64,000 nucleotides of DNA, from the NCBI GenBank assembly GCA_903860135.1, contig CAIOPG010000009.1:175805-239804 (forward strand), in the 5' to 3' direction. This DNA is from Candidatus Omnitrophota bacterium. GTDB taxonomy: Bacteria > Omnitrophota > Gorgyraeia > Zapsychrales > Fredricksoniimonadaceae. The stretch's first letter is position 1, and every line of letters starts with the position of its first letter. Made by a program: the position numbers and the translations under genes. The notes beneath the pieces were generated by a model that searched no databases, was not told the origin of the DNA, and saw nothing but the letters and a program-made list of their open reading frames with translations. Below, one piece after another: positions 28,825-47,435 of this stretch.

Positions 28825-29210
28825 GGACAATTAGCCCCCGCGCATGAAGGATTAGTTCCGGCCACAACTGGACTTGCTAATGTGACCGTGACCGTCAGAC
28901 CAGATCCAATACTGCCCACACATGTCCCGCTACCACAGGAATACGACACCCCGTCAGCAATAATATGTGTAGCCAACGCCGTATTGATAGCATTGATATC
29001 AGCAGCTACCAGATTAGTGCCGTTGTTATACAAACGATACTGGGCATTGGCGGCATGAATGATACTCAAATTATCCACAACAGAACGCCCGCGCGTGCGA
29101 TCAATCGTCTTAATAAACTGCGGGATAGCCATACCAACCAATATTCCGGAAATGACAAAAATAACCATTAACTCAATCATGGTAAAAGCTTCATTATAAA
29201 GTTTAGTCAT
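28821..29210 (-). CDS. minor pilin, paralog family 2 (129 aa, C-terminal SCAGANCP)
   Basis: ATG 29210 gives MTKLYNEA|FTMIELMVIFVISGILVGMAIPQF. Shares SIIHAANA, AINTAL, YSC and the terminal CxGxxCP with the next two genes. ATGA overlap at 29207-29210. Confidence 0.8.
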   Translation of the reverse strand: MTKLYNEAFTMIELMVIFVISGILVGMAIPQFIKTIDRTRGRSVVDNLSIIHAANAQYRLYNNGTNLVAADINAINTALATHIIADGVSYSCGSGTCVGSIGSGLTVTVTLASPVVAGTNPSCAGANCP

Positions 29211-29581
29211 GGACAACTTGTTCCTGTACATGTCGCAACGCCCGAACTTGTGTTCGGAGTTGTTACAACAAATCCCGTACCCGTAGCCGTGCATTCCGTA
29301 CCTGAAGAACAAGAATATGTGGCACCATCAGCCTTAATATTTAACCCGAGAGCCGTATTTATGGCAGCCACATCTCCAGCCGTAGTATTAGCTCCAGAAC
29401 GTGAAAGAAAGAGGGCATTAGCCGCATGAATAATCGAAATGTTCGTCATGGCCGAACGCGCCTTTGACCGTAAAATAGTTTTTGAAAACTGCGGAACAGC
29501 AAATGCGGCAATGATTGAAATGATGCTCAAAACAACAATAAGTTCAATCAGCGTAAACCCGCTACGCATAAAATACCTCAT
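29207..29581 (-). CDS. minor pilin, paralog family 2 (124 aa, C-terminal TCTGTSCP)
   Basis: ATG 29581 gives MRYFMRSG|FTLIELIVVLSIISIIAAFAVPQF. SIIHAANA, AINTAL, YSC motifs. ATGA overlap at 29578-29581. Confidence 0.8.
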   Translation of the reverse strand: MRYFMRSGFTLIELIVVLSIISIIAAFAVPQFSKTILRSKARSAMTNISIIHAANALFLSRSGANTTAGDVAAINTALGLNIKADGATYSCSSGTECTATGTGFVVTTPNTSSGVATCTGTSCP

Positions 29582-29973
29582 GGGCAACTTGAACCAGAAC
29601 AAGATGGATTTGAGTCACTTAACGCAGTAGCCAACGTGAGCGTCTCTGTAAACCCTGAACCTGTCGCAAGGCATGTCCCTGAATCAGTACAGGAATAAGT
29701 CACTCCATTCGACGTGATCTTTAACTCCAGAGCCGTATTAATGGCCACTAAATTTCCGGCTGTAGATGCATTAACATTTGAATTATTATTACGTAAACGA
29801 TAATACCCATTAGCCGCGTGGATCAGATTAAGATTGGCGATCCCTGCACGTGCATAGGCACGCTTGGTACTTTTTGAAAGAAGCGTGGTCGCAAAAATTG
29901 CTAAAATACCAACAAGCGCCAACACAATTATCATTTCAATGAGCGTAAAAGCCTGACGCATAGTTGGTCTCAT
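29578..29973 (-). CDS. minor pilin, paralog family 2 (131 aa, C-terminal SCSGSSCP)
   Basis: ATG 29973 gives MRPTMRQA|FTLIEMIIVLALVGILAIF. NLIHAANG, AINTAL, YSC motifs. ATGA overlap at 29970-29973. Confidence 0.8.
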   Translation of the reverse strand: MRPTMRQAFTLIEMIIVLALVGILAIFATTLLSKSTKRAYARAGIANLNLIHAANGYYRLRNNNSNVNASTAGNLVAINTALELKITSNGVTYSCTDSGTCLATGSGFTETLTLATALSDSNPSCSGSSCP

Positions 29974-30389
29974 GCGCACGGCGTATTAGGACAAATTTTC
30001 TTAAGTGTGTCCGGACATGAACCACACGAAAAAGCACCCGCTGCAGACACACTAACAGTATATGAACCTGTCGCTGGCTGAACAGCGGATTTTATCGTCA
30101 ATGAAACAGCACCCGTTGATGTATTGCACACAGGTGCCGCAAAATTCGTCGGCGTAACCGTTACATCCAGATTGGCACAAGCGGCACTGGTATCATAGGT
30201 GCTTTTTTCAAGATTATACCTTATCTGAGCCGCGTTGAGCGTGTTAAGGACATTAATCCCTTCAGTAAAGATCGTTTGATCCTTCGCTCCTACCATACGC
30301 GGTACAGCCAACGACGCCAATACACCAATGATAACAATCACGACGATAATTTCAATTAATGTAAAAGCAGACGATCGTATTATATTCAT
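29970..30389 (-). CDS. pilin-like protein (139 aa, Cys-rich C-terminus)
   Basis: MNIIRSSA|FTLIEIIVVIVIIGVLASLAVPRM. The C-terminus is FSCGSCPDTLKKICPNTPCA. Confidence 0.8.
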   Translation of the reverse strand: MNIIRSSAFTLIEIIVVIVIIGVLASLAVPRMVGAKDQTIFTEGINVLNTLNAAQIRYNLEKSTYDTSAACANLDVTVTPTNFAAPVCNTSTGAVSLTIKSAVQPATGSYTVSVSAAGAFSCGSCPDTLKKICPNTPCA

Positions 30390-30401
30390 ACCATTCCAAA
30401 A

Positions 30402-30818
30402 CTAATTCTTCAATGTTGAAAAAATCCCACCCTTTATCTTTGTAACAGTTCCCGCAGGGGCATTCAGCCTAAGCGTGATCGTATCAGCAACTCCTGCACC
30501 ACCTTTTAAAGTAGCTGTCGCACCGCAAGCAGATGCATTCGCACATTCAGTAGCGGTAAATGAATACGTAAAATTAGTTGATGCCGTTGGAAATGAATAG
30601 CCCGATATTGCTGTTATATTATTACATGCCGTATAATCTTCACTGTTCTGAATATAACATTCCTGGACTTTGCGCATCAAAACGCCAAGCTGCATATAAG
30701 CCTCTGCCGCTTTGGCAATATTCACCTGAGCGCTAAGACGCGGCAAAGCTACTGCGGCCAAAACACCAATGATGATAACAACAATGATGATCTCGATTAG
30801 TGTAAAGCCTTTTTTCAT
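30402..30818 (-). CDS. type IV major pilin candidate, tandem copy 1 (138 aa)
   Basis: MKKG|FTLIEIIIVVIIIGVLAAVALPRLSAQ: a very short leader, Gly -1, Phe +1, Glu +5, and four Cys. Near-identical to the next two genes. Confidence 0.88.
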   Translation of the reverse strand: MKKGFTLIEIIIVVIIIGVLAAVALPRLSAQVNIAKAAEAYMQLGVLMRKVQECYIQNSEDYTACNNITAISGYSFPTASTNFTYSFTATECANASACGATATLKGGAGVADTITLRLNAPAGTVTKIKGGIFSTLKN

Positions 30819-30836
30819 TACTTACCCCATTTCCAA

Positions 30837-31256
30837 TTAATTCTTTAATGTAGAGAAAATACCGCCCTTGGTTTTTGTAACAGTTCCCGCAGGGGCATTC
30901 AGGGTAAGCGTGATCGTATCAGCAACTCCTGCACCACCTTTTAAAGTAGCTGTCGCACCGCAAGCAGATGCATTCGCACATTCAGTAGCGGTAAATGAAT
31001 AGGTAAAATTACTTGATGCCGTTGGAAATGAATAGCCCGATATTGCTGTTACATTATTACATGCCGTATAATCTTCACTGTTCTGAATATAACATTCCTG
31101 GACTTTGCGCATCAAAACACCAAGCTGCATATAAGCCTCTGCCGCTTTGGCAATATTCACCTGAGCGCTAAGACGCGGCAGTGCTACTGCGGCCAAAACA
31201 CCAATGATGATAACAACAATGATGATCTCGATTAGTGTAAAACCCTTTTTTTTCAT
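30837..31256 (-). CDS. type IV major pilin candidate, tandem copy 2 (139 aa)
   Basis: MKKKG|FTLIEIIIVV.... Differs from copy 1 by four residues plus one Lys in the leader. Confidence 0.88.
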   Translation of the reverse strand: MKKKGFTLIEIIIVVIIIGVLAAVALPRLSAQVNIAKAAEAYMQLGVLMRKVQECYIQNSEDYTACNNVTAISGYSFPTASSNFTYSFTATECANASACGATATLKGGAGVADTITLTLNAPAGTVTKTKGGIFSTLKN

Positions 31257-31313
31257 ACATTTCCTTTTTTAGTGTTTTATTAGTATGTTCCTGCATTAAT
31301 AATATTTTTGGAA

Positions 31314-31730
31314 TTAATTCTTCAAAGTTGAAAAAATACCACCCTTTGTTTTTGTAACGGTTCCCGCAGGGGCATTCAGCGTAAGCGTGATAACATCCGC
31401 CGCCGCACCACCTTTTAAAGTAGCTGTCGCACCGCAAGCAGATGCATTCGCACATTCAGTAGCGGTAAATGCATATGTAAAATTACTCGATCCAGTTGGA
31501 AAGGAATAACCAGATATCGCTGTTACATTATTGCATGCCGCATAATCTTCACTATTCTGAACATAACATTCTTGGACTTTGCGCATCAAAACACCAAGCT
31601 GCATATAAGCCTCTGCCGCTTTGGCAATATTCACCTGAGCGCTAAGACGCGGCAACGCTACTGCGGCCAAAACACCGATAATGATAACAACAATGATGAT
31701 CTCGATTAGTGTAAAACCTTTTTTTTTCAT
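31314..31730 (-). CDS. type IV major pilin candidate, tandem copy 3 (138 aa)
   Basis: MKKKG|FTLIEIIIVV.... The N-terminal roughly 55 residues are identical to copies 1 and 2, and the C-terminal half is slightly diverged. Confidence 0.88.
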   Translation of the reverse strand: MKKKGFTLIEIIIVVIIIGVLAAVALPRLSAQVNIAKAAEAYMQLGVLMRKVQECYVQNSEDYAACNNVTAISGYSFPTGSSNFTYAFTATECANASACGATATLKGGAAADVITLTLNAPAGTVTKTKGGIFSTLKN

Positions 31731-31787
31731 ACATTTCCTTTTTTAGTGTTTTATTAATATCTTCCTGAATTAAAAATATTTTTAAAA

Positions 31788-32207
31788 TTAATTCTTCAAA
31801 GTTGAGAAAATACCCCCCTTTGTTTTTGTAATCGAACCAGCTGAAATATCCAGCTTAAGAGTGATAACATCCGCAGCGTTCGCATTGGTTCCACTGAATG
31901 AAGCTTGACCTACACAATTATTAGCATCTGGACACAGAGAAGAATTAAAATTATATGTAAAATTAGGAGTTACTGGAAATGTATAACCTGATAGAGCTGT
32001 CACCTCGTTGCATCCCGCCATGATGTCACCATTTTGAATATAACATTCCTGGACTTTGCGCATCAGAACACCCAGTTGCCTATAGGCCTCAACGGCTTTT
32101 GTAGTATTAACCTGATTCGTAACACGAGGCATAGCTATCGCTGCTAAGACTCCAATAATTATAACAACAATTATTACTTCAATCAATGTAAACCCATTTT
32201 TATACAC
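31788..32207 (-). CDS. type IV major pilin candidate, tandem copy 4 (more diverged, about 139 aa)
   Basis: Shares GFTLIE..IIVVIIIGVLAA, QLGVLMRKVQECYIQN and the terminal TKTKGGIFSTLKN with copies 1-3. I favour GTG 32207 (MYKNG|FTLIEV), which gives the same 5-residue leader as the paralogs. The ORF-track start 32222 is also a GTG. Confidence 0.8.
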   Translation of the reverse strand: MYKNGFTLIEVIIVVIIIGVLAAIAMPRVTNQVNTTKAVEAYRQLGVLMRKVQECYIQNGDIMAGCNEVTALSGYTFPVTPNFTYNFNSSLCPDANNCVGQASFSGTNANAADVITLKLDISAGSITKTKGGIFSTLKN

Positions 32208-32281
32208 GTATATCCTACCCACATGTTATCTGTATACAAATATGACATATTTAAATAAATAAAGCGAATATAAATAATTAA

Positions 32282-33508
32282 TTATCCTCCGGTAGATAAA
32301 GAAAGTATAGGTAGAAACATCGCGATAACAATTAGACCTATTACACCACCCATGATAACAAGCATAACGGGTTCAATAAGAATGCTGAATCGCTTCAAAA
32401 ATTCTTCAACATTAGCTTTATAATATATGGCGACATTATTCAACATCTTGCCAAGCTCACCGGTTTCCTCGCCAACACGGATCATCTGCACCGTCATCGA
32501 AGGGAAAAATCCACTTCTTTCCATTGGATCTGCCAAAAGCTGCCCCTCACGTACGGCTTCACGCACATTTCTTATAACTTCCGCACAAACCACATTATCC
32601 ACCAGTCTCTCCGATATCTCCAAAGAATAAAGAATGGGGACACCGCTTTCCATAAGGGTGGACATTTGAGATGTAAACTTCTCAATTACAATTAATTTTA
32701 TCATACCACCGAAAATAGGAACTTTAAAAAGAAAAGTCTCAAATTGCTTTCTTCCAAGAGGTGTTTTAATGTAATTCATGAAAAGAAAAATGCTTCCGGC
32801 CCCTCCAGCAATAAGTATAAAAAATCTCTCTTTCAATAATTTGAAAATTGACATCATTATGACCGTGATAGTCGGGAGCTTGATATCCATATCAGAAAAA
32901 ATACGTTCAAATGTAGGCCCGACAAAAAGAGCGAAAAACAAAACAGCTCCGATACAAATAAAACAAAGAACCATCGGATAAACAAGGGCTCCTATAATAG
33001 TAGACTTGAACTTGGCTGTATCCTCCATATATTGTGTCAACTTGTTGAGAACTTTCGGTAATGTACCAGATGCTTCACCAACCTCAATAAGACTGACCCA
33101 AAAAGCAGTAAACACCTTGGGATATTTTGAAATAGCGCTACTGAAAGTACGACCCTGTTCAACATCTGTGACTACCGCCTCAATGATGACGGTTAACCCA
33201 CGACTTTCCAGCTGAGAGCTGATGATCTTGAGCGATCGCATTAACAAAACACCTGCTCCCATCATCGCAGAAAGTTGACGCGCAAAAGAAACAACATCAT
33301 TTAATGAAATATTATTGTGCGAAAACACCCGCTTCTTTGCAACTGACGTCACAGGCTGTTGATTCTCAACAAACTGTTTTACAGCGGTTACAAAAAGCCC
33401 TTTTTGCTGTGCAAACTTAACAGCCTGCTGATCATTAATGGACTCTACAACCTCATTAAATACATGCCCTGAATTATCTTTAGCAGTAACAAGAAATTTG
33501 GCCATCAA
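32282..33508 (-). CDS. pilC: type IV pilus/T2SS platform protein (GspF/PilC family)
   Basis: 408 aa. Two T2SSF repeats (FARQLSAMMGAGVLLMRSL; FTSQMSTLMESGVPILYSL), three TM segments, and a C-terminal IEPVMLVIMGGVIGLIVIAMFLPI. Confidence 0.9.
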   Translation of the reverse strand: MMAKFLVTAKDNSGHVFNEVVESINDQQAVKFAQQKGLFVTAVKQFVENQQPVTSVAKKRVFSHNNISLNDVVSFARQLSAMMGAGVLLMRSLKIISSQLESRGLTVIIEAVVTDVEQGRTFSSAISKYPKVFTAFWVSLIEVGEASGTLPKVLNKLTQYMEDTAKFKSTIIGALVYPMVLCFICIGAVLFFALFVGPTFERIFSDMDIKLPTITVIMMSIFKLLKERFFILIAGGAGSIFLFMNYIKTPLGRKQFETFLFKVPIFGGMIKLIVIEKFTSQMSTLMESGVPILYSLEISERLVDNVVCAEVIRNVREAVREGQLLADPMERSGFFPSMTVQMIRVGEETGELGKMLNNVAIYYKANVEEFLKRFSILIEPVMLVIMGGVIGLIVIAMFLPILSLSTGG

Positions 33509-33523
33509 TTTCCCCAGATCAAT

Positions 33524-35233
33524 TTATATAACAATAGATAAAATTTCCTCAAGGCTCGTGACACCTTCTTCAACCTTCTTCATCCCAACTTCAAAAAGTG
33601 TCGCCATTCCAGCTTTAGATGCTGCGTCCTTCAATTCGTCATAGGAAACATTGTTACCGATCATACGCCGTATAACATCATTAATGGCAAGAACCTCTGA
33701 TACGACCATGCGTCCCCTGTATCCGGTGTGCCCGCATTTATCGCACCCTTTAGCGCGATAAATCAAATCGGTAGACAACTTGATAGACCCCAGATCTTCC
33801 GGCCTCGGTTCATAGGGCTCTTTGCAATCGGCGCATAACTTACGCGCTAAGCGCTGGCTCACAATCATCGTTAATGACGGTGTTAATAAATATGAGGGGA
33901 CACCTATATCCATCAAGCGGCTTATCGCTGACGGTGCGTCATTGGTATGCAGTGTTGAAAGGACAAAGTGACCTGTTAATGCCGCACGCACACATATCTC
34001 TGCTGTCTCAAGATCACGTATTTCACCAACCATAATGATATCCGGATCCTGTCGAAGAAACGATCGTAACGCCTGTGCAAATCCAAAGCCAATATCAGGA
34101 CGCACATGAACCTGGTTAATTCCATCAATGCGGAACTCAACAGGATCTTCTGCTGTCATAATATTCTTGGTGCGATCAAAAACTTCAGAAAGAGAAGAAT
34201 AAAGGGTCGTCGACTTACCACTACCCGTAGGTCCTGTTATAAGAAAAAGACCATACGGAACTTTAAGTGCTTTACGGATGAGTTCTAACTGGGACGCATT
34301 AAATCCAAGCGTAGCCAAATCAAGTTTTACTGCATTCTTATCCAGGATACGCATAACCACTTTCTCTCCCCAAACGGTAGGAACGGTGGACACACGCAGA
34401 TCAACAACACGGTTTTGATCAAACTTTACAGAAATACGCCCATCCTGCGGCAATCGCCTCTCGGCAATGTCAAGCCTAGAAATGATCTTAATGCGCGATA
34501 CGATCGAAGCATGAAGATGTTTTGCCGGCGGAGGGATTTGATAAAGATCACCGTCGATACGATAACGAAGTTCGATCTTGTCCTTAAAAGGTTCGATATG
34601 AATATCACTTGCCCGGTCATCAATAGCCTGCCTGATAATAAGATCCACAAGCTTGATGATCGGCGCTTCTTCGGCTGTTGCGATCAACCTGTCAAGACTT
34701 AACTCCGACTCAGATTTATCATCACCGGATGTTGAGAAATTACTCGAGTCATTCTGCGCTCTTTCAACCGCCTTTCCCCAAGCACCACCCTCATCGGCCA
34801 GATAAAACCGCTCCAATGATTTTAGAATATCGGTACGTGTCGCAATGACAAAGTTTATTTCACAACCAGTCATCTTTTTCAAATTATCGATCATAATAAG
34901 ATCAAATGGATTAAAGATCGCGCATGTCAGTGAATTACCATTCCGATTAAGTAACAATACAAGATTATCTACAGCATACTGATACGAAATAAGCTTTTCA
35001 AGGCCCTGCCCTTTTTGAGGATTCAATAGGCCTGAAGCTTCGGAGGCATATGGAATAAGAAGCTGTGTCCCAAGAGCCACAGCCAAGTCGCTTTCATTAA
35101 TAAATCCCATTTTGACCAAAATTTCTCCGACATGACTCTTGTCGGTCTTTTGGGCATCTATAGCAGACTGGAACTGGGCTTCGGTAATTAAGCCCTTTTT
35201 AATAAGTATTTCACCAAGCTTTAACCGTGCCAT
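33524..35233 (-). CDS. pilB: type IV pilus assembly ATPase (GspE/PilB family) with N-terminal MshEN-type domain
   Basis: 569 aa. Walker A GPTGSGKST, Walker B DPDIIMVGEIRD, His box GHFVLSTLHTNDA, and a tetracysteine CADC...CDKC. The N-terminus holds two 24-residue MshEN-like motifs. Confidence 0.92.
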   Translation of the reverse strand: MARLKLGEILIKKGLITEAQFQSAIDAQKTDKSHVGEILVKMGFINESDLAVALGTQLLIPYASEASGLLNPQKGQGLEKLISYQYAVDNLVLLLNRNGNSLTCAIFNPFDLIMIDNLKKMTGCEINFVIATRTDILKSLERFYLADEGGAWGKAVERAQNDSSNFSTSGDDKSESELSLDRLIATAEEAPIIKLVDLIIRQAIDDRASDIHIEPFKDKIELRYRIDGDLYQIPPPAKHLHASIVSRIKIISRLDIAERRLPQDGRISVKFDQNRVVDLRVSTVPTVWGEKVVMRILDKNAVKLDLATLGFNASQLELIRKALKVPYGLFLITGPTGSGKSTTLYSSLSEVFDRTKNIMTAEDPVEFRIDGINQVHVRPDIGFGFAQALRSFLRQDPDIIMVGEIRDLETAEICVRAALTGHFVLSTLHTNDAPSAISRLMDIGVPSYLLTPSLTMIVSQRLARKLCADCKEPYEPRPEDLGSIKLSTDLIYRAKGCDKCGHTGYRGRMVVSEVLAINDVIRRMIGNNVSYDELKDAASKAGMATLFEVGMKKVEEGVTSLEEILSIVI

Positions 35234-35242
35234 AATTTAATC

Positions 35243-36745
35243 CTATTTCTTTTGTACACTCATAGAGTCCATGGCAGAACGAATAATGCTCTGTCTTATC
35301 ACACCGCTACTTTCGCGAATTCCAAGATCAGCAGGAACAGTGTCAACAACGAAATCACTGCCAGGATCCATGACACGGGGGGTAATAAAAATAAGGAGCT
35401 CCCTGTCTTTGGTAGTCGTAGTATCGTGACGGAACACACGCCCGAGAAAAGGAATGTCTCCTAAGACCGGAAGTTTTGTCTGAACTTTTTGTTTCTCAGA
35501 ACGTAACAATCCTCCGAGAACAACAGTTTCACCCGAATGTATCCTCATTTTAACCTTAGCACTACGGATCTCTGTGTCCTTAAAAGTCACCCCGCTATAA
35601 GTTCCACCCAAACGCGCAACAACCACGCGTGGTGAAACAGCCAGTAAAATATCACCTGTCATCAAATTTAACTGAGGCGTGACCGTCAACGTAATCCCCG
35701 TCTCAACTCGTTCAGGTTCAACAGTGGATCCTTGCGTTATTGTCGCCGCTGCCGTCACTTTAACACCAATAGCTTCCGACGCAGTAATCTTAATCTGTGC
35801 CGTTTCATTATTCATGGTCCAAATTCTTGGGCGCGCTAAATTCCTAGCATCTGTTGACGTCTTTAAAAACTGTAACATAGCCGAAAAAGCATTTCCGCCC
35901 ATCGCGCCCTGTGAATACGTAACCTCTGTGCCCCCCTTACTAAGTGCATTCTTTTGGTCAAGAGGGAAATAAAAACTCCTCCCTCCCAGTCCTTTGAAAT
36001 CATATAAGGTGTTGCCAAACTTAACACCTATCTCATCAGCTACTTCCTTAGAAACATCTATCATCTGGACTTCAATCAATATCTGGGCAACCGGCACATC
36101 CAGTTTAGCCAATGTTCGTTCGATCAAAGGAAAATTTGTATCTTCATCAGAAATGATCAGGCTGTTGGTCCGTGAATCTTCAGCGATCTTGGCCGAAGCT
36201 GTTAATACTGTTTTCAAAATATCCACGAGAGCAACGCTCGTCGTTACTGTATTGCTCCCAGCACTCGACGATCCATTACCCCCCCCTTCTTCTGCGGTAA
36301 TTCCGAATGTTGATTGCAACTTTGAAGATGCAACAGTAGCATATTTTAAAGGATAAACACGCGTTATGATATTCTTTTCAGCCTTGATATTATCGATCAT
36401 CAAAATATTGTCATTATTATCATATGAATAAGAAAGTCCATTTGCCGTCAAAATTTTTTTCAAAGCATCCTCAACAGGAACAGCATCAAGAAAAAGTGTT
36501 ATAGGGTCGGTTTTAACAGCGTCTGAAACAATAAAATTGGCACCTATCTGACGAGAGAAGGCCTTCAAAACATCCCTGATATCTGCATTCTTGAAATCAA
36601 GGGAAACAAGTTGAGAATATTGTGGAAGTATAAAACTGTTCTGACTACCAGCTGAAGTAGTGGCAGAAAAAACTTGAGTAAATAAAGAAATTTGAATAAT
36701 ATTGGTAAGTAAAAATATAAATAAATATTTATTTTTTAAACCCAT
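35243..36745 (-). CDS. pilQ: outer-membrane secretin (PilQ/GspD family), short form
   Basis: 500 aa. Signal peptide, N0-like domain (VSLDFKNADIRDVLKAFSRQIGANFIV), and a C-terminal secretin core (LPVLGDIPFLGRVFRHDTTTTKDRELLIFITPRV). Confidence 0.9.
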   Translation of the reverse strand: MGLKNKYLFIFLLTNIIQISLFTQVFSATTSAGSQNSFILPQYSQLVSLDFKNADIRDVLKAFSRQIGANFIVSDAVKTDPITLFLDAVPVEDALKKILTANGLSYSYDNNDNILMIDNIKAEKNIITRVYPLKYATVASSKLQSTFGITAEEGGGNGSSSAGSNTVTTSVALVDILKTVLTASAKIAEDSRTNSLIISDEDTNFPLIERTLAKLDVPVAQILIEVQMIDVSKEVADEIGVKFGNTLYDFKGLGGRSFYFPLDQKNALSKGGTEVTYSQGAMGGNAFSAMLQFLKTSTDARNLARPRIWTMNNETAQIKITASEAIGVKVTAAATITQGSTVEPERVETGITLTVTPQLNLMTGDILLAVSPRVVVARLGGTYSGVTFKDTEIRSAKVKMRIHSGETVVLGGLLRSEKQKVQTKLPVLGDIPFLGRVFRHDTTTTKDRELLIFITPRVMDPGSDFVVDTVPADLGIRESSGVIRQSIIRSAMDSMSVQKK

Positions 36746-36749
36746 ACTA

Positions 36750-37265
36750 TCAATCTTTCAATAATAACTTGTAAAGAAATTCGTTGTAATCTATTTCCAC
36801 ACGGCCTTTGCGGATAGCCAAAATCCTTACCCCCTCTGATCTATCCCCCAAACCCAATATATTTCCATTTAAAATAACCATTGGATTCCTTGTTTTATAA
36901 AATATTCCTGTCACTTTCAGCACAGGCAACGAGGCTATTGATAATTTCCTTACAGGTTGCGCTGAGGGTATCGCAACAAAGTGCTTTATTTCAGGAATAA
37001 CAGCAACTATCGGTCTATCTACTACTGGCTTAACTAAATTATCAGCTTCCTTGCGAAAATCTTTACTAACAAGATCTGGTCTGGCTTTAAACGGATGGAA
37101 AGGCTCCCCAAGAGACTCTATCATCATTTCAAACGGAAGCTTATTAGTCTCATTGGCGTAAGAAAGAGTTGAATTAAAATGAAATAATTGAAAACTATAG
37201 ATAAAAAGAATATTATACATTAAAAAAAGATGATGCCTACTTCTTTTTAAAATTTTTATGTTCAT
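36750..37265 (-). CDS. PilP/GspC-like periplasmic protein (hypothetical)
   Basis: Start at ATG 37265 (MNIKILKRSRHHLFLMYNILFIYSFQLF...SYA|NE), a plausible signal peptide. The C-terminus LKVTGIFYKTRNPMVILNGNILGLGDRSEGVRILAIRKGRVEIDY resembles the PilP/GspC HR beta-domain. Lies just upstream of the secretin gene. The start is uncertain (alternatives 37301 and 37220). Confidence 0.5.
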   Translation of the reverse strand: MNIKILKRSRHHLFLMYNILFIYSFQLFHFNSTLSYANETNKLPFEMMIESLGEPFHPFKARPDLVSKDFRKEADNLVKPVVDRPIVAVIPEIKHFVAIPSAQPVRKLSIASLPVLKVTGIFYKTRNPMVILNGNILGLGDRSEGVRILAIRKGRVEIDYNEFLYKLLLKD

Positions 37266-37854
37266 TATCTTCCACCAGTTGAAGCAACGAAATGGTAACA
37301 TCCAGCGTCATCGCATCCGTCTGGACTCCTGAATTAACCGGATTGTACTTAATCAACAGGCTATCCAATTTGATCATGTACCCGGAAGATTCCATATCAT
37401 GAACAAATAATAGCATATCCTTGACATTAAGGGAAGAAGCACTAAAACTCATACAAATAGAACGAAAAAAACCATCATTGCTAGTCTGCAATGGATTAAA
37501 AGCATCAATTGTAATTCGTCGCCGCGTGGCACGCCCTGTAACATAAGATATAAAATCAGCCTTGACCAATCCCAAAGGCATCTTGCACATATAATCAGTC
37601 AGATATTTGTTGCTTTGCTCAAGATCCTGGATAGGCTGTCTTTTTGATTGCAAAATCTTTTTTCTCGACGCAAGAGACTGATATTGATTAAAATTTTTAG
37701 TTGTAAGAAAAACTATTACACAAAATCCCAATAAAACAATCAAAGAATTAGTCGCTAAAACTAAATTCTGATTTACATAATGGTTACAATCCTTAATAAA
37801 TTTTGAAGGATTATTTAGATATATTTCGAAATTCTTTAAATCATCAAGATTCAT
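37237..37854 (-). CDS. PilO-like bitopic membrane protein (hypothetical)
   Basis: ATG 37854 forms an ATGA overlap with the upstream stop. One TM helix (LVLATNSLIVLLGFCVIVFL), then a coiled-coil-like segment and a C-terminal alpha/beta region. Position between PilM-N and the PilP-like gene matches pilO. Assigned by architecture and position only. Confidence 0.5.
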   Translation of the reverse strand: MNLDDLKNFEIYLNNPSKFIKDCNHYVNQNLVLATNSLIVLLGFCVIVFLTTKNFNQYQSLASRKKILQSKRQPIQDLEQSNKYLTDYMCKMPLGLVKADFISYVTGRATRRRITIDAFNPLQTSNDGFFRSICMSFSASSLNVKDMLLFVHDMESSGYMIKLDSLLIKYNPVNSGVQTDAMTLDVTISLLQLVEDNEHKNFKKK

Positions 37855-39455
37855 TTCGCCTCGCACGTAATCGAAAACGCTGTGACTTTTCTATTATCAT
37901 ATTCTCGAACCTGTAAAGAAACAATCTTAATTTGTGTGAAATTAGTGGCGAACAAATTATCGCTATTTAAAGCATTAAAGAAATGATTAACCCTTTCAAA
38001 TTCTATATTGTTGTCCTTCAAAGACACATACCCCGAAAAGGTCATTGCCGTCTTGGTCTGAAGTGAATAATAATCAACCTCTTTGTTCCCGGGCTCAGGG
38101 ACCTTGCGCGCCGAAACAGGCTCATCTTTAAAAGACAAACTAACAGACTCAAGCCAAAATCCGGATGGCAGTCGTTTGACCAGCCGCACCAACATCTTTG
38201 TCGCCCGTGCATCGAAAGGCAATGATTTCAATGAAAATAACTTCTTGACATTCTTCATTTTCTTCTGAACGGCGTCTGACTCATCTATATCAACGTATTC
38301 CCCGATCTCCTGCTCAAGATTAACAACTTCCTGTCTAAACTTAGACAGAAGCTGATCAGCAAAGAATGCAACAGAAAAGATCAGTGTAAAAACACCGGCC
38401 CCCACCGCCAAGGGCAAAACCAATGCTTGCCTCCTCTGGTCAATTTCAACTTGCTTGAGAGAAACCTGCTGTTTGGAACCTTCAAACAAATTAAAGTCAA
38501 TAACAGTAACCACTTTACTCATCATGGCCACGCCGTAGGCATACACAGCCGCCATTGTATTGCAATCATTGTGATCTACAAGTCTAAAAATATCAACAAT
38601 CTCAACATTGACCCCGAGTTCCTCTCCCATCTTGTCCCACAAAGCATTATTTCCGCCAATGGATATGGCCACCATTCTCTGGACTTCCTCCCCGCCATAC
38701 TGACGCAAGAAGAATTCGGAAGAAATACGGATCTCATTGAAAACTTTGGAACGTAGCTCATCATCGATCTGAAGAGTGCCAACACCCTGATGCACACCTC
38801 CCTGAAGATTAAACTCACGGATAAACTTGACATACCCTTTTTCACAAATAAGGAGTTCTCCGATATAACCATCGACATAAACAATCGCCGTTAATTCATC
38901 GGGATCAACGATCTTTCTAAAAACCAATGCACGGTAAAGACTAGCCGACGCCGGTTCACTGTAAACAACATTTATACCTGCTTGCATTAAAGCATCCGCA
39001 TGTTTTTCAAAAACATCTTTACGGATAGCAACAAATATAATGCCAATCTGCCGCGGATTACTTCCTAGAATATTCGAAGGAAAATATGTGTACGACAACT
39101 CATCAATTGGGAAAGGAATATACTTCTTGGCTTCGAAGATAACAACATCCTGTATCTCGCTTGACTTCATCCACGGAATACTGAACCAGCGAATAATAAT
39201 ATCTTTTGAAGGGATAGAAAGAAATGTTTCCTGCGTTGAAAAACCTTTATTTCGAACAGATTTTTGCAGTGCATCTAGAATCTGCATATCATGCGGTAAA
39301 GACTTCTTGTCAGCAGTGGAAGCCACGTCTTCCGGCGATACAAAAGGAACAAATGTCCCTATGGCGGGTGCGTTGCTCTCCAGTTGAACCAGCGTGAATC
39401 CGCTTGATCCCGAGTAAACCCCTAATCGCTTCTCACTGGCCATACCCAACCTCAT
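37851..39455 (-). CDS. pilM: PilM-PilN fusion (actin-like ATPase-fold pilus assembly protein joined to a TM helix and periplasmic PilN-like domain)
   Basis: N-terminal LGVYSGSSGFTLVQLE and FEAKKYIPFPIDEL resemble PilM motifs. A TM helix near residue 345 (ALVLPLAVGAGVFTLIFSVAFFA) is followed by about 170 aa. The likely true start is ATG 39443 (GAGG 6 nt upstream); the ORF-track start is 39455. Confidence 0.7.
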   Translation of the reverse strand: MRLGMASEKRLGVYSGSSGFTLVQLESNAPAIGTFVPFVSPEDVASTADKKSLPHDMQILDALQKSVRNKGFSTQETFLSIPSKDIIIRWFSIPWMKSSEIQDVVIFEAKKYIPFPIDELSYTYFPSNILGSNPRQIGIIFVAIRKDVFEKHADALMQAGINVVYSEPASASLYRALVFRKIVDPDELTAIVYVDGYIGELLICEKGYVKFIREFNLQGGVHQGVGTLQIDDELRSKVFNEIRISSEFFLRQYGGEEVQRMVAISIGGNNALWDKMGEELGVNVEIVDIFRLVDHNDCNTMAAVYAYGVAMMSKVVTVIDFNLFEGSKQQVSLKQVEIDQRRQALVLPLAVGAGVFTLIFSVAFFADQLLSKFRQEVVNLEQEIGEYVDIDESDAVQKKMKNVKKLFSLKSLPFDARATKMLVRLVKRLPSGFWLESVSLSFKDEPVSARKVPEPGNKEVDYYSLQTKTAMTFSGYVSLKDNNIEFERVNHFFNALNSDNLFATNFTQIKIVSLQVREYDNRKVTAFSITCEAK

Positions 39456-46920: not shown

Positions 46921-46964
46921 ATAATTATTATAATCCTTAAAGACCGAAGAAGCACGTAATAGAT

Positions 46965-47000
46965 ATAACCCCTGCCATCATCACTGACGACAGGGGTTAT
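46965..47000 (-). terminator. possible terminator hairpin downstream of the small basic protein gene
   Basis: 10-bp perfect stem ATAACCCCTG/CAGGGGTTAT with a 16-nt loop, 64 nt after the stop. No U-tract follows, so confidence is low. Confidence 0.35.
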
Positions 47001-47063
47001 ACGTTGATGACTAGCACATGTCGAATTCAAGCAAATTCAAGCCACAGATTTGATCTGTAAACC

Positions 47064-47348
47064 TTACTTCTTGCCCTTCTTCGCCACGACCTTCTTCACA
47101 GCCTTTTTCACAGCCTTCTTCTTCTTTCCGCCCTTCACCATGGCAGCAGAAGAAATATCGCCCTGCTTATCGATAAAATAGAGGAAACCAGATTCCTTCT
47201 TAATACCGACCTTGGCAACCTTCTTGGGCTTGCCGCCCTTCTTGTCGCCGCGCGCCATCGCCGCAGAAGAAACATCGCCATCCTTATCAATAAAATAAAG
47301 GAAACCCTTTTCTTTCTTGACGCCAACTTTAGCAACTTTCTTAGCCAT
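47064..47348 (-). CDS. small lysine-rich basic protein with an internal tandem duplication and a KKAVKK tail (94 aa)
   Basis: Two 32-residue repeats, KKVAKVG[VI]KKE.GFLYFIDK.GD[VI]SSAAM..G, followed by GKKKKAVKKAVKKVVAKKGKK. Strong SD (AAAGGGGGGTGAATA ATG) and its own flanking intergenic regions. Confidence 0.7.
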   Translation of the reverse strand: MAKKVAKVGVKKEKGFLYFIDKDGDVSSAAMARGDKKGGKPKKVAKVGIKKESGFLYFIDKQGDISSAAMVKGGKKKKAVKKAVKKVVAKKGKK

Positions 47349-47435
47349 TATTATTCACCCCCTTTCATCGTGTAACTTTTTTCCATTTGAATCGGCGATA
47401 TCCCATTAACTCCGCCGATGATATTCATCTTGAAA

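Follow-up and report, generated by a model that had tools for sequence, protein, structure and literature searches.

A duplicated, lysine-rich 94-residue protein from Omnitrophota belongs to an unnamed prokaryotic protein family and may bind DNA

A gene for a basic protein of 94 residues lies at 47064..47348 on the minus strand of a 64,000-nucleotide stretch of the Candidatus Omnitrophota contig CAIOPG010000009.1 (the whole of this stretch is called the window below). The open reading frame (ORF) has an ATG start and a stop codon at 47064-47066, and the ORF list, its homologues and the ratio of nonsynonymous to synonymous substitution rates (dN/dS) support it as a coding sequence. It is a real gene under very strong purifying selection. 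Its product (MAKKVAKVGVKKEKGFLYFIDKDGDVSSAAMARGDKKGGKPKKVAKVGIKKESGFLYFIDKQGDISSAAMVKGGKKKKAVKKAVKKVVAKKGKK) belongs to no known family and is therefore best described as a member of an unnamed two-repeat 'GYLYFIDKxGD' family. From its sequence features, the protein is tentatively read as an abundant, nonspecific, nucleoid-type protein that binds double-stranded DNA (dsDNA), with a probability of about 0.42, while nucleic-acid binding of any kind has somewhat better than even odds.

The protein consists of two similar units and a tail. Repeat 1 (residues 3-34, KKVAKVGVKKEKGFLYFIDKDGDVSSAAMARG, 47247..47342, minus strand) and repeat 2 (residues 42-73, KKVAKVGIKKESGFLYFIDKQGDISSAAMVKG, 47130..47225, minus strand) are offset by 39 residues, and both are defined by codon comparison, family consensus and predicted strands. 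An earlier annotation of the window (the original prediction), made from the letters of the DNA, had counted 26/32 identical residues between the repeats, with 10 synonymous and 6 replacement codon differences, and codon comparison gave exactly these numbers. At the nucleotide level, 74/96 positions are identical. When the protein was shuffled 2000 times, the best 32-mer self-match was 9.7 on average and at most 15, compared with 26 in the real protein. The lysine-rich C-terminal tail (residues 74-94, 47067..47129, minus strand) is distinguished by its charge, a modelled helix and its variability in the family.

A word-indexed search at E <= 1e-3 returned at least 2396 homologues. The best 120 of these 2396 matches are 73-105 residues long, 74-93% identical to the window protein and all annotated as 'hypothetical', with Candidatus Omnitrophota metagenome-assembled genomes (MAGs) as the named sources. 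An exhaustive profile search of 1.84 billion representatives at 50% identity found 992 clusters at E <= 1e-3, including 329 at E <= 1e-10, and the exact window protein was absent from a collection of 15 billion proteins. The family is defined by two KVxKxG[VI]K[KR]ExG[YFW]LY[FY][ILV]DKxG[DN][VI]Sx[AV]xMxRG units with a spacing of 39-42 residues, which usually lie in the first 80 residues and are usually followed by a basic tail, and the window protein fits this definition. The duplication is present in all family members. Four apparent one-repeat members (P0138, P0191, P0192 and P0211) begin with the internal methionine of 'MARG' and were read as truncated gene calls.

Both units of 285 two-repeat proteins share the consensus KVAKVG[VI]K[KR]ExG[YFW]LY[FY][ILV]DKxG[DN][VI]S[RC]AKM[AV]RG, in which Y18/Y57 and G24/G63 are invariant and the unit offset is mostly 39-41 residues. 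Between proteins, the identity of repeat 1 to repeat 1 is 0.62 and that of repeat 1 to repeat 2 is 0.58; both halves are therefore under nearly equal constraint, in keeping with a pseudo-symmetric domain. The near-identical consensus of the two units bears out the view in the original prediction that both halves are constrained.

The protein is highly conserved. The nearest orthologue (locus L006) shares 72/74 core residues, with dN/dS 0.023 at a synonymous divergence (dS) of 0.77; against most remaining orthologues synonymous sites are saturated, and the proportion of nonsynonymous differences (pN) is only 0.12-0.25. In syntenic Omnitrophota loci the identity to the window is 66-81% for the 94-residue protein, 58-69% for UvrA, 39-55% for aspartate dehydrogenase (AspDH) and 45-53% for PanC, and in L006 the core is 97% identical compared with 88% for UvrA. 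The protein is more identical than UvrA at the same loci and is therefore the slower-evolving of the two. Such slow rates are typical of proteins with many contacts, for example chromatin or ribosomal proteins. The small size and the low-complexity tail are the only features that would suit a spurious, non-functional ORF in a stretch rich in lysine codons. This explanation is rejected, with next to no probability left to it, on account of the thousands of homologues, the dN/dS of 0.023, synteny in 40-49 loci and the conserved Shine-Dalgarno sequence (SD) and terminator. The absence of homologues or of conservation in related genomes, which the original prediction had named as the sign of a spurious ORF, was thus not what the searches found.

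One position in each unit varies in a paired manner. At codons 28 and 67 (47265-47267 and 47148-47150) the window protein has Ser/Ser, while most Omnitrophota orthologues have Cys at both (GD[VI]SCA), L006 has Cys/Ser and the wider family has Arg or Cys. Judged by sequence, the paired symmetric Cys could make the protein redox-sensitive or disulfide-linked in some species.

To follow the family across taxa, one genome of each GTDB species was scanned, which gave at least 565 loci. These include Omnitrophota, Elusimicrobiota/Endomicrobia and Woesearchaeota (64-77% identity) and, by MAG label, Planctomycetes, Nitrospirae, Deltaproteobacteria, Halanaerobiales and Clostridia. A second search with a member of high guanine-plus-cytosine content as the query added Myxococcota and Nanoarchaeota. 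The archaeal contigs are genuinely archaeal; the neighbouring genes include the GatE, HerA and OapB/OapC families. No cultured organism carrying the family was present among the matches listed.

AlphaFold2 supplied with 71 diverse sequences produced a model with a mean predicted local distance difference test score (pLDDT) of 87.7, reaching 92-97 over residues 1-70, and a predicted template modelling score (pTM) of 0.66 (a model made with 30 close homologues had a pLDDT of 48.5 and was discarded). Strands are predicted at residues 3-6, 16-20 and 26-30 in the first unit and at 42-45, 55-59 and 65-69 in the second, and the core is predicted to be all-beta, composed of two pseudo-symmetric three-stranded units of 39 residues. 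A pseudo-dimeric beta fold had been guessed in the original prediction, and the model agrees with it. The tail is modelled as a helix at residues 75-91, with a modest pLDDT of 59-72. Sequence searches of the PDB with protein and profile queries gave no match below E = 0.1.

The window protein had no match in a Pfam-A scan at E <= 10 and no meaningful match in NCBIfam. The inability to name a family for the GFLYFIDKxGD motif, admitted at the outset, is therefore shared by Pfam, NCBIfam and the PDB, none of which contains one, and these databases likewise gave no clear match to a known family with a function other than nucleic-acid binding. A Pfam scan of 71 diverse members at E <= 1 touched 48 families, all sub-threshold and sharing a beta-hairpin motif, including DUF5050, WW, Proteasome, Choline_bind and SSL_N; DUF5050 was matched by 11/71 members, with a best E of 0.0041 that is below the gathering score. 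Precomputed Pfam labels from a newer release are empty for 239/240 members listed. The label PF27482 on one homologue is a 'faint' Beta-prop_YycP match and was rejected as the family of these proteins; another member (P0194) has a weak DUF7829 match. Literature on the motif, DUF7829, PF27482 and Omnitrophota nucleoid proteins yielded no description of the family. PHROGs gave weak matches only, including an endolysin PHROG. A phage family of 70 positions and unknown function, phrog_9154, matched a single repeat of two members at E 3e-4 to 8e-3, and by this sequence likeness may be a phage-encoded one-repeat relative.

One alternative takes the units as blades like those of beta-propellers, which would assemble into a homo-oligomeric ring (for example a trimer with six blades, as in the RSL/BambL lectins) serving as a scaffold or as a platform for ligands or proteins, with the tails as accessories. 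DUF5050 and Beta-prop_YycP are themselves propeller blades; however, none of the propeller repeat profiles (DUF5050, SSL_N, Beta-prop_YycP, YWTD) matched above its family threshold, and the model has three strands per unit, not four. The model moreover shows the pair as a confidently folded monomeric domain (pLDDT 92-97). Chains differ in how many pairs they contain, and long linkers join the pairs, which suggests that the pair is itself the autonomous unit. The window protein further differs from YWTD/LDLR-type blades and two-blade lectins (RSL) in being very basic and cytoplasmic. We regard the ring as doubtful; it is mainly a structural proposal, and could be compatible with nucleic-acid binding.

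Chains with 2-4 repeat pairs separated by long acidic or variable linkers were also observed (P0127, 354 residues; P0121, 886 residues; P0162), and in P0121 the pairs come after a large extracytoplasmic region and a transmembrane (TM) segment. These sequences suggest that the modular element is the repeat pair rather than a single unit.

The signals around the gene concern its expression. The SD (AAAGGGGGTGA, 47355..47365, minus strand) lies ~7 nt ahead of the ATG, is identical in L006 and has an anti-SD duplex energy of -12.3 kcal/mol, which ranks first among the 51 window genes. The gene is flanked by spacers of 87 nt upstream (47349-47435) and 143 nt downstream (46921-47063), in contrast to nearby genes, which overlap or are separated by 22-57 nt. 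The spacer between the gene and uvrA contains a terminator-like hairpin with an 18-bp stem and a 4-nt loop (46963..47002, minus strand), a region that folds with z = -5.6 relative to shuffles. The nearest relative, L006, keeps the hairpin; its stem there shows a compensatory change, and a T-run follows. The hairpin is read as an intrinsic terminator dividing the gene from uvrA. The strong SD, the intergenic flanks and the downstream hairpin had all been pointed out in the original prediction, and all three held on measurement. Codon usage departs from the window average: AAG is used for 25/29 lysines versus 0.58 (p = 0.001), TCT for 5/5 serines versus 0.19 and GGG for 0/12 glycines versus 0.33. 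Together, the gene's own terminator, the strongest SD of the window and this codon bias suggest high expression, as judged from sequence.

An Rfam search of the gene flanks found no element. The sole site returned by a promoter scan overlaps the start codon and is implausible. Phe-rich antisense ORFs at 47050-47181 (plus strand) and their equivalents in other loci (ORF clusters c6 and c11) are not genes; they recur across loci because AAG/AAA codons are read in reverse.

Nucleic-acid binding is supported indirectly, by the charge of the protein and by recurrent fusions to HNH nucleases; the strong constraint, the expression signals and the cytoplasmic placement also count in favour of the nucleoid-type reading. 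The window protein has an isoelectric point of 10.3 and a net charge of +22, and sequence analysis found neither a signal peptide nor a TM segment. The core alone has a mean net charge of +11.7 across 301 relatives, with conserved basic residues at K4, K7, K11, K/R12, K22, R33 and the repeat-2 equivalents. The tail contains GKKKKAVKKAVKKVVAKKGKK, and the last 20 residues (75-94) include 12 Lys or Arg and no acidic residue.

The original prediction had called the tail histone-H1-like. This holds for its composition; there is however no winged-helix globular domain, and the tail is the least conserved part of the protein. Compared with the long K/A/P-rich domain of H1/Hc1-type proteins, the 21-residue tail is K/A/V-rich but short, proline-free and without conservation of length. 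It is 5 residues shorter in the 97%-identical orthologue L006, and in 278 relatives, with tails of up to 60 residues, the median is 10 residues, 56/278 have 6 or fewer and 185/278 have a basic tail (K+R >= 40%). The tails of H1, the chlamydial Hc1/Hc2 and actinobacterial HU (HupB/Hlp) are similarly K/A-rich, of low complexity, probably disordered-to-helical and engaged in nonspecific phosphate neutralisation. The window protein differs from these systems in lacking a winged-helix or HU/IHF core, and its short, labile tail has no S/TPKK motifs or proline. No Linker_histone or Hc1 domain was matched in Pfam at E <= 10, and the model core is all-beta; HU/IHF (Bac_DNA_binding) likewise had no sequence match in Pfam, NCBIfam or the PDB.

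In the proposed mode of action, the gene would give a small basic cytoplasmic protein that is probably highly expressed. Three elements would make up each 39-residue unit: one short strand, the loop KVG[VI]K[KR]E, which is rich in lysine, and the tight hairpin GxLY[FY][ILV]DKxGD[VI]S. The compact two-lobed core (residues 1-74) would show its conserved Lys/Arg on a pseudo-symmetric surface. This core may dock on the dsDNA backbone or in a groove, independently of sequence, and the flexible, length-variable K/R-rich tail would neutralise phosphate charge in the manner of the H1, Hc1 and actinobacterial HU tails. In Omnitrophota, Elusimicrobiota, Woesearchaeota and similar lineages the protein would then act as a chromatin-type or nucleoid-associated protein. 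The same working mode is proposed as that of Sul7d (Sso7d/Sac7d) and Cren7, which are lysine-rich, monomeric proteins of 60-65 residues, all- or mostly beta, very abundant and binding dsDNA without sequence specificity. Sul7d and Cren7 of Crenarchaeota differ in their SH3-like five-stranded fold, lack of internal duplication and phyletic range; neither matched the window protein in sequence or structure, and its predicted fold is not an SH3-like five-stranded barrel.

Fusions were surveyed among the 150 best representatives. In P0195 the two-repeat module is joined to an HNH nuclease (Pfam HNH, E = 1.3e-13), and a dedicated search found the repeat-repeat-coiled-coil-HNH architecture, with the module N-terminal, in at least 7 proteins that are 41-53% identical. 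Recurrence at this level of identity means that the architecture is maintained and is not an assembly artefact. In related HNH proteins the N-terminal part holds FtsK_gamma, which is a DNA-binding domain of the winged-helix type, or RuvB-like regions instead. The recurrent HNH fusion is, by analogy, the best single argument for DNA binding by the module. In McrA-like HNH proteins the module fills the same architectural slot as N-terminal modules such as FtsK_gamma; it differs in that the FtsK_gamma winged helix is an unrelated fold and that the window module stands alone, without a nuclease. Across this McrA-like family (P0195, P0386-P0390, P0392 and sister proteins), the N-terminal modules observed to swap are two-repeat, FtsK_gamma, RuvB-like and Sel1. 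The C-terminus of P0167 appears NucS/PD-(D/E)xK-like by eye; this was unconfirmed in Pfam, PHROGs and the PDB and is not used as evidence.

Other partners are of different kinds. In P0175 the module is fused to a TM segment and OmpA and lies N-terminal to the TM segment; by analogy with MotB-type topology, the module is probably cytoplasmic in this fusion. In P0162 (468 residues) it is fused to zinc (Zn) ribbons, GAF and Prok-RING, and other members carry further Zn-ribbon or TM-segment fusions.

Several points weigh against a DNA-binding nucleoid protein. Basic composition by itself predicts function poorly, and the acidic residues E13, D21 and D25 are conserved as strongly as the lysines. 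The weak matches point to beta-propeller blades and hairpin repeats, whose usual binding partners are proteins or small ligands. Fusions unrelated to DNA also occur (TM segments, OmpA, GAF, Prok-RING), and the gene neighbourhoods differ between phyla and offer no functional link.

The charge, conservation, SD and codon bias are equally compatible with a small basic protein that binds RNA or associates with the ribosome, such as an RNA chaperone, an accessory ribosomal protein or a hibernation-type factor, and lysine-rich extensions are common in ribosomal proteins. However, in none of the 85 loci examined does the gene lie in a ribosomal-protein or translation-factor operon, the flanks contain no Rfam elements, and Pfam recognises a single enzymatic partner, the DNA nuclease HNH. 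The patchy spread over distant phyla and both domains is also unlike that of core ribosomal proteins. An RNA or ribosomal role is accordingly judged unlikely. The cold-shock domain, a further point of comparison, had no match at E <= 10 and is outside the 25 most-matched of the 48 sub-threshold families of the 71 members; the resemblance of KGFLYF to the cold-shock KGFGFI is by eye only.

Peripheral binding to anionic membrane lipids or envelope polymers at the cytoplasmic face, comparable to choline-binding or cell-wall hairpin repeats, would account for the sub-threshold likeness to these repeats and to the endolysin PHROG, and for the fusion of several relatives to TM or TM plus OmpA regions. 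The (AVKK)3 segment of the window tail also has the periodicity of an amphipathic helix. We consider this very unlikely: the similarities are insignificant, the amphipathic tail is peculiar to the window orthologue and not conserved, and the HNH and Zn-ribbon fusions fit poorly. The protein has no signal peptide, and the wall is therefore out of its reach. Choline-binding and cell-wall-binding repeats do resemble the window protein at the motif level, with xxG after an aromatic beta-hairpin (GWxKxxGxWYYF... versus VGIKKExGFLYFIDKxG); they differ in their period (~20 residues versus 39), the window protein is not secreted, and the E-values are 0.01-1. Choline_bind_1/2/3 were matched at E 0.03-0.04 in 2-4/71 members and a choline-binding protein in the PDB at E 0.98, values that do not place it among these repeats. 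The WW domain is similar in its three-stranded sheet and length (~35 residues), but its signature tryptophans and proline are missing from the window protein, which has no Trp at all; the WW profile gave E 0.012 in 4/71 members, again short of membership. As regards the tail itself (KKAVKKAVKKVVAKK), its four-residue AVKK periodicity would give an amphipathic helix and is absent from the tails of other orthologues.

Turning to gene neighbourhoods, the order dapA-dapB-...-aminotransferase-folK-panC-AspDH-[94-residue gene]-uvrA-TPR-MotA/ExbB is kept in ~40-49 loci (uvrA 40, AspDH 46, panC 49). A neighbour conserved across phyla was looked for and none was found; the synteny is lineage-specific. 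In Elusimicrobia, a KamA-type radical S-adenosylmethionine gene (lysine 2,3-aminomutase-like) is immediately upstream of the homologue in five loci (L010, L024, L030, L072, L082). A small HTH_17 (excisionase-type) gene lies upstream in 7 Elusimicrobia loci, with the KamA-type gene in L030, L072 and L082 and without it in L048, L065, L075 and L083.

In 5/11 Woesearchaeota loci (L011, L034, L037, L039, L047) a trio encoding a small GTPase, OapB (PF09846) and OapC (PF09845) is located ~0.2-3.5 kb from the homologue, and it directly adjoins the homologue in L037 and L039. The OapABC trio is the ArvABC vesiculation operon, originally named from its position beside a Haloferax replication origin (PMC10927574). 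Its proximity to the homologue may reflect plain synteny or an origin-proximal location. In two bacterial MAG loci (L036, L040) a dnaA-like gene (617 residues) lies 1-2 kb downstream of the homologue, past tpiA and rpiB, a hint of origin-proximal placement in some lineages.

Within the window, essentially all credible genes at 1-62290 are on the minus strand (including gatCAB, his genes, alaS, pilins, uvrA and dap/arg genes), forming one co-directional block of ~62 kb. Seven genes of prepilin type, with GFTLIE motifs at the N-terminus, are arrayed in tandem at 29207-32222 (minus strand) and adjoin an assembly cluster of the type IV pilus or type II secretion system kind (32282-39455). Three adjacent prepilin copies (30402-30818, 30837-31256, 31314-31730) are 92-97% mutually identical, which suggests that tandem duplication or gene conversion took place recently.

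Small basic proteins that await characterisation are not rare. The present family is large and unannotated (~1000 clusters at 50% identity), is unusually conserved, even beyond UvrA, spans both prokaryotic domains and has no solved structural relative. It is also a simple case, provided by nature, of an ancient duplication within a protein with both halves under near-identical constraint. The ~70% identity across Bacteria and DPANN Archaea, despite saturated synonymous sites, would mark gene exchange among co-occurring ultra-small organisms. To our knowledge, the phyla concerned have no cultured model and no description of how their nucleoid is organised. If the protein is an abundant DNA binder, it would represent a new structural class beside HU/IHF, H-NS, Fis, Dps, Alba, histones, Sul7d, Cren7 and MC1. 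In the boldest form of this proposal, which we hold to be rather improbable, it would found a chromatin or nucleoid protein family that has so far gone unrecognised, with a fold new to the PDB. The family would be common, at 64-77% identity, to DPANN archaea (Woesearchaeota, Nanoarchaeota) and to bacteria that are ultra-small or host-associated (Omnitrophota, Elusimicrobiota), and the protein would act there as a major architectural DNA binder, possibly as a ring oligomer of propeller-blade-like units.
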